DNA of 64,000 bases from Shigella phage sb3. The stretch is from the sequence record PQ666541; one strand, 5' to 3'. Made by a program: the position numbers and the translations under genes. Below are positions 5,955 to 6,626 of this stretch, in pieces (position 1 is the stretch's first letter; every line of letters begins with the position of its first letter). The notes under the pieces are model-generated. The model saw only the letters and a program-made list of their open reading frames with translations. It did no database searches and was not told the DNA's origin.

Positions 5955-5960
5955 TTGATT

Positions 5961-6611
5961 ATGGGGCTTCGGCCCCTATTCTCGAGGAAACAAGTGATTA
6001 TTTCTAAGTTTGTTAAAGTGAAAATTGTACCATCAAATTTTAAACATTATCAATCAAAGGGTTATAAATTAACACCTCTTGGAGCGGTTAAACATGGATT
6101 TAGGTATTATGAAATTGATGTTAAAGTTGAAGACATTAAAGGTAGTACCGCGTATGTAAAATGCCGTTGCGATAAATGTGGAATTGAATATAACCAACGC
6201 ATTGGAAGAAACACTGATATTTGTCGTGATTGCCGTCATAAAGATAAAATGCGCAATAATTCATATGGTTCCGCGAATAAAGGAAAAACAGTAGAATGTA
6301 TGCATGGCGTAAATCATCCAAGATGGAACCCAAATAAATCTGAAATGCGTGAATATATTTCATTGGTATATAAAGAAACTCGTAAGCATAAGAAAATTTG
6401 GTCAAAATGGCCAAATGCTGATAAAATAGGAGTGTGCGGTACAAAAGGTGCTTACCAACTTGATCATAAGGTATCTATCAAATACGGTTTTGATAATTTA
6501 ATTCCTGCTGAAATAATTGGCGGTATTAATAATTTAGAAATAATCACTTGGGAATCTAACCGAGAAAAGTCAAAAAGAAATAGTGTAGATCTTTGGGATT
6601 TACTAGAATGA
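5961..6611 (+). CDS. Free-standing HNH-type endonuclease (mob-like) between genes 18 and 19
   Basis: ORF with Cys cluster CRCDKCG..CRDCRH and C-terminal HNH-like motif HKVSIKYGFDNL..NNLEIITWESN; first ATG is 6 nt after the gene 18 stop (track start at 5955 is a TTG). Confidence 0.6.
   Translation: MGLRPLFSRKQVIISKFVKVKIVPSNFKHYQSKGYKLTPLGAVKHGFRYYEIDVKVEDIKGSTAYVKCRCDKCGIEYNQRIGRNTDICRDCRHKDKMRNNSYGSANKGKTVECMHGVNHPRWNPNKSEMREYISLVYKETRKHKKIWSKWPNADKIGVCGTKGAYQLDHKVSIKYGFDNLIPAEIIGGINNLEIITWESNREKSKRNSVDLWDLLE
5963..5976 (+). terminator. Hairpin GGGGC-TTCG-GCCCC downstream of gene 18
   Basis: Perfect 5 bp GC stem with TTCG tetraloop directly after the gene 18 stop; overlaps the first codons of the HNH ORF. 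Confidence 0.45.
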
Positions 6612-6626
6612 TTCTAAAGGCCTGTT
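6609..6626 (+). terminator. Hairpin GGCCTG-TTTCGG-CAGGCC after the HNH ORF
   Basis: Inverted repeat overlapping the HNH stop codon. Confidence 0.4.

Follow-up and report, generated by a model that had tools for sequence, protein, structure and literature searches.

This report concerns a short insert between two tail genes of Shigella phage sb3 (sequence record PQ666541), of which 64,000 nucleotides (nt), one strand, were analysed; we refer to that whole stretch as the window. The window is Tequatrovirus-like, and its positions 5400–7300 are 98.7% identical to the corresponding region of Shigella phage sb1. The genes follow one another in the order terminase gene 17 (2111–3943), gene 18, the open reading frame (ORF) discussed here, gene 19 and portal gene 20. 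The ORF belongs to a family, ORF19.1, that was first recorded in phage T6. We describe where the insert begins and ends and how it is distributed, how its gene is likely to be expressed, what its protein may look like, and why we regard it as probably a homing endonuclease gene.

AN OPTIONAL INSERT BETWEEN THE SHEATH AND TUBE GENES

Alignment with T4 places the left junction of the insert immediately 3' of the gene 18 TAA, and the right junction at the ORF's own stop codon, the last base of which opens the shared ATTCTAAAGGCCTGTTTCGGCAGGCC hairpin. Both late-promoter boxes of gene 19 follow this hairpin. Relative to T4, therefore, the cassette adds a new hairpin after gene 18, and displaces the resident one to the 3' side of the ORF. 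An earlier note, made by a model from the letters of the window, had placed an ORF between genes 18 and 19, a position at which it knew of no gene in T4. Both statements are correct: the plus-strand frame is intact, running uninterrupted from 5955 to a stop codon that ends at 6611, and the T4 spacer between genes 18 and 19, 116 nt long, contains no such gene when the two are aligned. The ORF is real, then, but its reported length of 217 amino acids (aa) should be 216, counted from the ATG at 5961, and its reported end, 6626, overshoots the stop codon by 15 nt, into the next hairpin.

As the same note had suggested, we compared this junction across T4-like genomes, and the insert proves to be variably present. 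Among approximately 500 Tequatrovirus records, 382 have an empty, T4-type junction, 47 carry the allele found in the window and 70 carry the T6 allele; the gene is therefore optional, and occurs in roughly a quarter of the records (~117/500). Presence and absence recur in at least three clades. In an S16-like pair the insert again starts immediately 3' of the gene 18 stop and ends ahead of the resident hairpin, and a further set comprises one occupied genome (L020) and two empty ones (L019 and L021). A scan of gp19 loci in IMG/VR returned 15 loci, too few for population statistics.

The locus has been on record since 1994, and a few records already label it a homing or HNH endonuclease. Annotations of the ORF include hypothetical, homing endonuclease, HNH endonuclease, type II restriction endonuclease, holin and putative head morphogenesis protein. 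It is left unannotated in RB5–RB10, and elsewhere the annotated start varies (ATG 5961, GTG 5994 or an internal ATG). One record, MG010123.1 ('Staphylococcus phage SAJK-IND', 32 kb), is ~98% identical at ~8500–10400 to this Tequatrovirus sheath/ORF/tube region, and is probably mislabelled or contaminated.

START CODON, LEADER AND TRANSCRIPTION

Conservation points to GTG 5994 as the most likely start codon, giving a protein of 205 aa (5994–6611), because the hairpin core, the GAGGAA at 5984–5989 and the GTG itself are invariant in all 12 close relatives compared. The ORF is uninterrupted in each of the 12. The long form of the ORF matches PHROG 5104, a phage family of unknown function (E 3.2e-91), with residues 14–217 aligned to positions 1–209 of the 228 in the profile, and residue 14 is the GTG. 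Homologues from many lineages begin MIISK or MIITK at this same position, those of VR7, S16 and a Klebsiella phage likewise start with GTG, and the 1994 T6 record had already put GTG forward as the start.

The earlier note proposed instead that translation begins at ATG 5961, within the hairpin, so that the long late transcript would be translationally silent. We consider this very improbable. The ATG is in frame, several database annotations begin the coding sequence there, and all three of its bases are paired in the minimum-free-energy fold. The description of the codon as embedded in the hairpin is accurate only for its G, the one base of the three inside the core stem of 5 bp; pairing of the A and U is confined to a weaker predicted extension. 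Against initiation at 5961, AAG replaces the codon in three of the 12 close relatives and GTG replaces it in two; all 12 have intact ORFs. The 13 codons upstream of GTG 5994 are not conserved in other lineages, and in the Klebsiella phage homologue a stop codon stands immediately 5' of the GTG. PHROG 5104 and the homologue N-termini start at the GTG, and no good Shine–Dalgarno sequence precedes 5961, whereas GAGGAA precedes 5994. The probable start lies outside the structure, 18 nt 3' of the hairpin core, and is unpaired in the predicted fold; GAGGAA takes part in the fold through G5984 and A5985 alone, which belong to a weak lower stem of 4 bp. Occlusion of the start codon by the hairpin, as first envisaged, thus falls away. 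For practical purposes, annotation of the gene should begin at GTG 5994, and not at ATG 5961 or a downstream ATG.

The leader hairpin lies 9 nt 3' of the gene 18 stop codon and folds at -10.8 kcal/mol, a value equalled by 5 of 200 shuffled sequences. It was considered as a canonical intrinsic terminator and rejected because it lacks a T-run; a terminator scan was also empty. No TATAAATA late-promoter box occurs between 3946 and 6638, and neither a sigma-70-like site (plus strand) nor a MotA box was found between the gene 18 promoter and the ORF. The leader in the window contains no early promoter element, and positions 5800–6800 match no Rfam RNA family. As no promoter of its own was found, the ORF would be reached solely by late read-through from gene 18. 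In the whole window, TATAAATA occurs 18 times versus 8.9 expected, a count that none of 100 shuffles reaches, and in the part of the window examined the plus-strand boxes adjoin late genes on their upstream side, as expected of T4-type late promoters.

Hairpins of a different design control some endonuclease genes. The published scheme, in which hairpin and late promoter are combined, covers I-TevI, segB and Aeh1 mobE (PMC2988022). The window resembles these in having a stable hairpin directly upstream of an endonuclease gene, and differs in that its hairpin contains no late promoter, and sequesters neither the ribosome-binding site nor the GTG; the suggestion that the ORF is regulated as T-even homing endonucleases often are does not hold here. 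The I-TevI/mobE-type arrangement, absent from the window, is found in the leader of the VR7 homologue (L005, 1434–1503), where TATAAATA lies within a 9-bp hairpin that is followed by AAGGA and a GTG start. The leader of the Klebsiella phage homologue has a TGnTATAAT-like element and then a 13-bp hairpin, and in the Bp7 and X20 homologues TATAAATA is immediately 5' of the ATG. The scheme therefore applies to some relatives and not to the window, the leader of which is laid out more like that of seg43(25), with a non-sequestering hairpin whose regulatory effect is itself unproven (PMC2988022).

THE PROTEIN AND ITS PREDICTED NUCLEASE FOLD

The C-terminal module of the protein is likely to have an HNH-like (beta-beta-alpha-metal) fold. 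AlphaFold models the whole protein with a predicted local distance difference test score (pLDDT) of 85, and residues 101–205 with a pLDDT of 86 and a predicted template modelling score (pTM) of 0.73. The models contain a strand at 154–158, a second at 181–185 and a helix at 186–192, the elements of a beta-beta-alpha core. Approximately 20 residues are invariant across the family in an alignment of 29 sequences, among them D157, H158, N180, N189 and K192, which are kept down to 33% identity with the window protein and occupy the positions of the catalytic His, the structural Asn and the metal-binding Asn. The D-H...N...N arrangement parallels that of the Cas9 HNH site. Structurally, the best matches are to Gme HNH (4h9d) and GVE2 HNH (5h0o), both of them small HNH endonucleases that stand alone; the Cas9 HNH domain, SspE, Cap5, BrxU, T5 SciA, VcaM4I, TagI and PtuB are also among the matches listed.

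Other searches were less informative. Foldseek, run with the full model against the PDB, found nothing significant; searches of PDB sequences, whether the query was the single sequence or the family profile, yielded zinc-finger-like noise and no HNH match; and hhalign against the single HK97 gp74 and GVE2 ORF43 sequences found nothing. A PADLOC scan of the protein gave no defence match. The HNH assignment is one of fold and motif, without support from a curated profile. Accordingly, the HNH-like C-terminus of the earlier note survives as a predicted fold with a D-H...N...N motif, but not as a match to any curated family. Its Cys-rich, zinc-finger-like segment is present, as a CxxC...CxxC pattern formed by C59, C62, C77 and C80. 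This Cys4 zinc ribbon belongs to an N-terminal module of ~130 residues that we take to be the putative DNA-targeting part. Coordinates of these and the other features are collected in Table 1.

Table 1. Features of the gene 18–19 region (positions in the window)
Feature	Position	Strand	Remarks
Gene 18 (tail sheath)	3975–5954	+	Upstream neighbour of the ORF; late promoter TATAAATA at 3939–3946
Hypervariable, mostly synonymous patch	5866–5905	+	Gene 18 codons A-R-S-I-N-Y-I-T-L-N-F-V; T4-type version in the window
Insert relative to T4	5955–6610 (656 nt)	+	In place of 8 nt of T4, 'tacggtgc', from the gene 18 stop to the shared ATTCTAAAGG
Leader hairpin, GGGGC-UUCG-GCCCC	5963–5976	+	Weaker predicted extension, 5955–5985
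Shine–Dalgarno sequence, GAGGAA	5984–5989	+	GAGG at 5984–5987 leaves 6 nt to the GTG
ORF19.1-type gene	5994–6611	+	GTG start, 205 aa plus TGA stop
Allele-specific central segment	6016–6389	+	Residues ~8–132: N-terminal domain, zinc ribbon and linker; ~45% nt identity to the T6 allele
Cys4 zinc ribbon, C59-x2-C62...C77-x2-C80	6168–6233	+	Treble-clef-like (DUF4379-like) resemblance
Linker motif, G-x-N-H-P-R-W-N-P-N-K	6306–6338	+	G105 and W111 invariant; model confidence low here
HNH-like core	6462–6569	+	D157-H158 ending strand 1, N180 before strand 2, N189/K192 in the helix
Resident hairpin, GGCCUGU-UUCG-GCAGGCC	6619–6636	+	Directly 3' of gene 18 in T4
Two late-promoter boxes, TATAAATA	6638–6645, 6697–6704	+	Serve gene 19
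Gene 19 (tail tube)	6719–7210	+	Downstream neighbour of the ORF

FAMILY, GENOMIC CONTEXT AND TWO ALLELES

The ORF19.1 family is large. A profile search of 1.84 billion representative proteins recovered 6303 clusters at E<=1e-3, 1362 at E<=1e-10 and 106 at E<=1e-30. None of 37 word-index matches carries a Pfam domain; some longer relatives carry DUF7487, which has no known function and provides no functional lead. Wherever the context is visible, the gene stands immediately 3' of the sheath gene: in T6, VR7, S16, Klebsiella Roth21, Bp7 and Serratia X20, and, farther away, in Sinorhizobium phiM12 and in metagenomic contigs whose homologues are 33–44% identical to the window protein. In one of these contigs the sheath protein is 1307 aa long.

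Two other genomes are of interest here. Bp7 (L008, 3769–4350 and 4408–4731/4737–) has, between genes 19 and 20, a 193-aa ORF with a GIY-YIG-like N-terminus (...RRYIGST...) and repeated GxxxP...GK motifs, and the portal gene downstream of it is annotated in two pieces; a second insert that resembles a nuclease gene may therefore be present in this tail/portal region. A metagenomic T4-like contig (L043, 2105–4324) encodes a Portal_T4 protein with an intein-splicing domain (precomputed Pfam), next to a 385-aa relative of the ORF19.1 family.

Comparison of the window with T6 (L004) reveals two alleles of one gene. The two occupy the same gene 18/19 site, have an identical 39-nt leader (hairpin, GAGGAA and GTG), and are near-identical in DNA at 5950–6015 and again at 6390–6611; the second of these stretches, the final ~220 nt, encodes the HNH-like core. 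They differ in the N-terminal module: the central ~375 nt, compared with L004 1523–1885, are ~45% identical in DNA and ~31% in protein. T6 also has its own type of patch in gene 18, with a Thr-to-Gln change. The same disparity between C- and N-terminal identity is found in the window protein and P0020 (92% versus 31%), in P0013 and P0027 (95% versus 37%), in P0015 and P0026 (90% versus 30%), and in P0012 and P0029 (81% versus 28%). Because similarity is so much higher at the C-terminus in all four independent pairs, we regard the protein as modular, with an exchangeable N-terminal module that presumably targets DNA.

A RECODED PATCH IN GENE 18

Upstream of the insert, gene 18 contains an island of polymorphism. 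Among 21 Tequatrovirus genomes, nucleotide diversity reaches 0.235 at 5865–5894 against a background of ~0.03, the next-highest interval being 0.10, in phages that are otherwise 97–99% identical. There are at least four haplotypes. Nearly all of the changes are synonymous, including exchanges of Arg AGA with CGC and of Ser TCG with AGC, and one haplotype has a Thr-to-Gln replacement; the peptide that the patch encodes (codons ARSINYITLNFV) is conserved even in distant phages. A similar pattern appears in two other clades when occupied genomes are compared with empty ones: mismatches number 0–3 per 30 nt until ~-120, divergence then extends from ~-105 to the stop codon, and at -90 to -61 there are 10–13 mismatches per 30 nt, again including Ser TCG versus AGC.

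The patch varies with the insert. Recoded patches occur in ~114 of 117 insert-bearing records, whereas empty genomes, estimated from an evenly spaced listing, are ~65% T4-type and ~35% recoded. All of the T6-allele genomes examined have their own patch type, and 44 of the 47 genomes with the allele of the window differ from it by 6–11% over 5860–6060, a divergence that points to recoded patches. Among the genomes with this allele, the T4-type patch of the window is found in sb1 and Ec_YwIITB1, and partly in sb2. From its sequence, the recoded patch resembles a cleavage-resistant target together with a co-conversion tract, and 5866–5905 becomes a candidate recognition and cleavage region.

A MOBILE CASSETTE OR A SETTLED GENE?

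On balance, we favour the view that 5955–6610 is a compact mobile cassette bearing a putative free-standing homing endonuclease gene of an uncharacterised family. The cassette would consist of the UUCG hairpin, a ribosome-binding site and the GTG-initiated 205-aa gene. When a phage without the gene shares the host cell in a mixed infection, the nuclease would nick or cleave that phage's sheath/tube region, the probable site being the gene 18 codons ARSINYITLNFV, which lie 50–90 bp 5' of where the cassette is inserted. As the damage is repaired by recombination, the recipient would acquire the cassette and, along with it, the recoded stretch of gene 18 that resists cleavage. With no promoter of its own, the cassette would depend for its transcription entirely on late transcripts that run on from gene 18 through the hairpin, and translation from the GTG would be weak, keeping the level of nuclease low.

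Several observations weigh against this view. The profile search of HNH families proposed in the earlier note came back negative, the window protein having no HNH match in Pfam or NCBIfam. HNH_4 (E 0.078) and HNH_5 (E 0.22) were each hit in one of 29 relatives, a Pfam scan of which otherwise gave only DUF4379 (PF14311) and zinc-ribbon hints, and hhalign against the HK97 gp74 family (PF01844) aligns the DH strand weakly, with a pairwise E of 0.006 and a probability of 6%. Our literature search found no functional study of the gene, and no cleavage, homing or expression data. About a third of the empty genomes also carry recoded patches, and the genome records are phylogenetically non-independent, so that counts of the association between patch and insert overstate its support. 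The window, sb1 and Ec_YwIITB1, finally, combine the insert with the patch of insert-less T4; the patch therefore cannot be simply the sensitive target of this allele. The idea that the window nuclease is disabled, which could account for its T4-type patch, was rejected: E173 is the one residue that sets it apart from the majority allele, and as E is the family-majority residue there, the protein is not obviously inactivated.

The main rival is that the gene has long been a fixed accessory of the T4-type tail-gene module, encoding a nuclease that does not mobilise itself and has some part in phage biology, for example in DNA processing or the exclusion of competitors. It would have been deleted from T4 and from many of its relatives. 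The depth of the synteny, with the gene right after the sheath gene in phiM12 and in the 33–44% identical contigs, agrees with this, as do distant contigs in which the gene is packed 2 nt from both of its neighbours like an established operon member, a point that also counts against mobility. So do the ORF's intactness in 12 of 12 relatives, its ~20 invariant residues and the size of the family (1362 clusters at E<=1e-10). The closest structural matches, GVE2 and Gme HNH, are stand-alone enzymes, and phage enzymes of this type assist terminases. Simple deletion, however, would not be expected to leave a localised, synonymous recoding of gene 18 linked to the presence of the gene; nor does a settled function fit easily with exactly the same presence/absence boundary in three clades of otherwise near-identical genomes, with two allelic N-terminal modules that swap on a common chassis, or with the fact that T4 manages without the gene. 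We judge this explanation unlikely, though it is the strongest of those opposed to homing.

A second rival attributes presence and absence to ordinary recombination between stem-loops of the promoter/stem-loop (PeSL) type, and makes the ORF a passenger whose nuclease is irrelevant to its spread. PeSL stem-loops are typically GGGG...CCCC in form, and recombination between them excises or inserts ORFs in T4-type phages (PMC2839356). In favour of this rival, two GC-rich, UUCG-type hairpins (5963–5976 and 6619–6636) bracket the insert, and the empty site has one. The junctions, however, fall outside the hairpins, the left one directly 3' of the TAA and the right one at the stop codon of the ORF; the two hairpins have only their loop region in common; the early promoter element is missing from the window leader; and the recoded patch, 50–90 nt away, is left unexplained. 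We regard this rival as decidedly improbable, and less so only than initiation at ATG 5961.

A more ambitious version of the homing interpretation can be entertained, tentatively, as a possibility that we doubt more than we credit. ORF19.1 could be an ancient homing-nuclease lineage specialised on the T4-type sheath/tube junction, in which two interchangeable N-terminal targeting modules on one HNH chassis compete for the site. Either allele would go with its own recoding of gp18's most conserved peptide, possibly cutting the other's haplotype or the empty one, and in the window a recent recombination event would have parted the nuclease from its protective patch.

RELATION TO OTHER FREE-STANDING ENDONUCLEASES

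The general behaviour of free-standing endonucleases has been described (PMC13096335). The GIY-YIG enzymes SegF and SegG cause marker exclusion, in which flanking sequence is co-converted. A comparable signature would be the recoded, donor-type stretch between the putative cut site and the gene, which accompanies the insert in most carriers though not in the window. The ORF19.1 protein differs from SegF and SegG in its predicted catalytic fold. The free-standing HNH enzymes of T4, MobA–E, offer another parallel. Like these (e.g. MobE, between nrdA and nrdB), the ORF is a small intergenic nuclease gene between conserved genes, it is sporadically distributed with the same site kept across divergent phages, and its target is expected in the neighbouring conserved gene (PMC2988022). 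The differences are that the ORF matches no HNH Pfam model, including those that would cover Mob-type enzymes, that its nuclease is C-terminal, behind a zinc ribbon, and that it lies in the late structural-gene region and not among genes of nucleotide metabolism.

IMPLICATIONS

An active protein would mean that the classic T-even repertoire of Seg, Mob and intron-encoded enzymes is joined by a nuclease family not studied so far; no Pfam HNH model covers it, and 'hypothetical' is its label in most database records. The two natural alleles, with a shared nuclease domain and different N-terminal modules, form a ready pair in which to study the swapping of target specificity. If the homing interpretation is true, the target lies inside an essential late structural gene, and homing could account for a local concentration of synonymous changes in gene 18, otherwise puzzling when therapeutic or environmental T4-like phages are compared.
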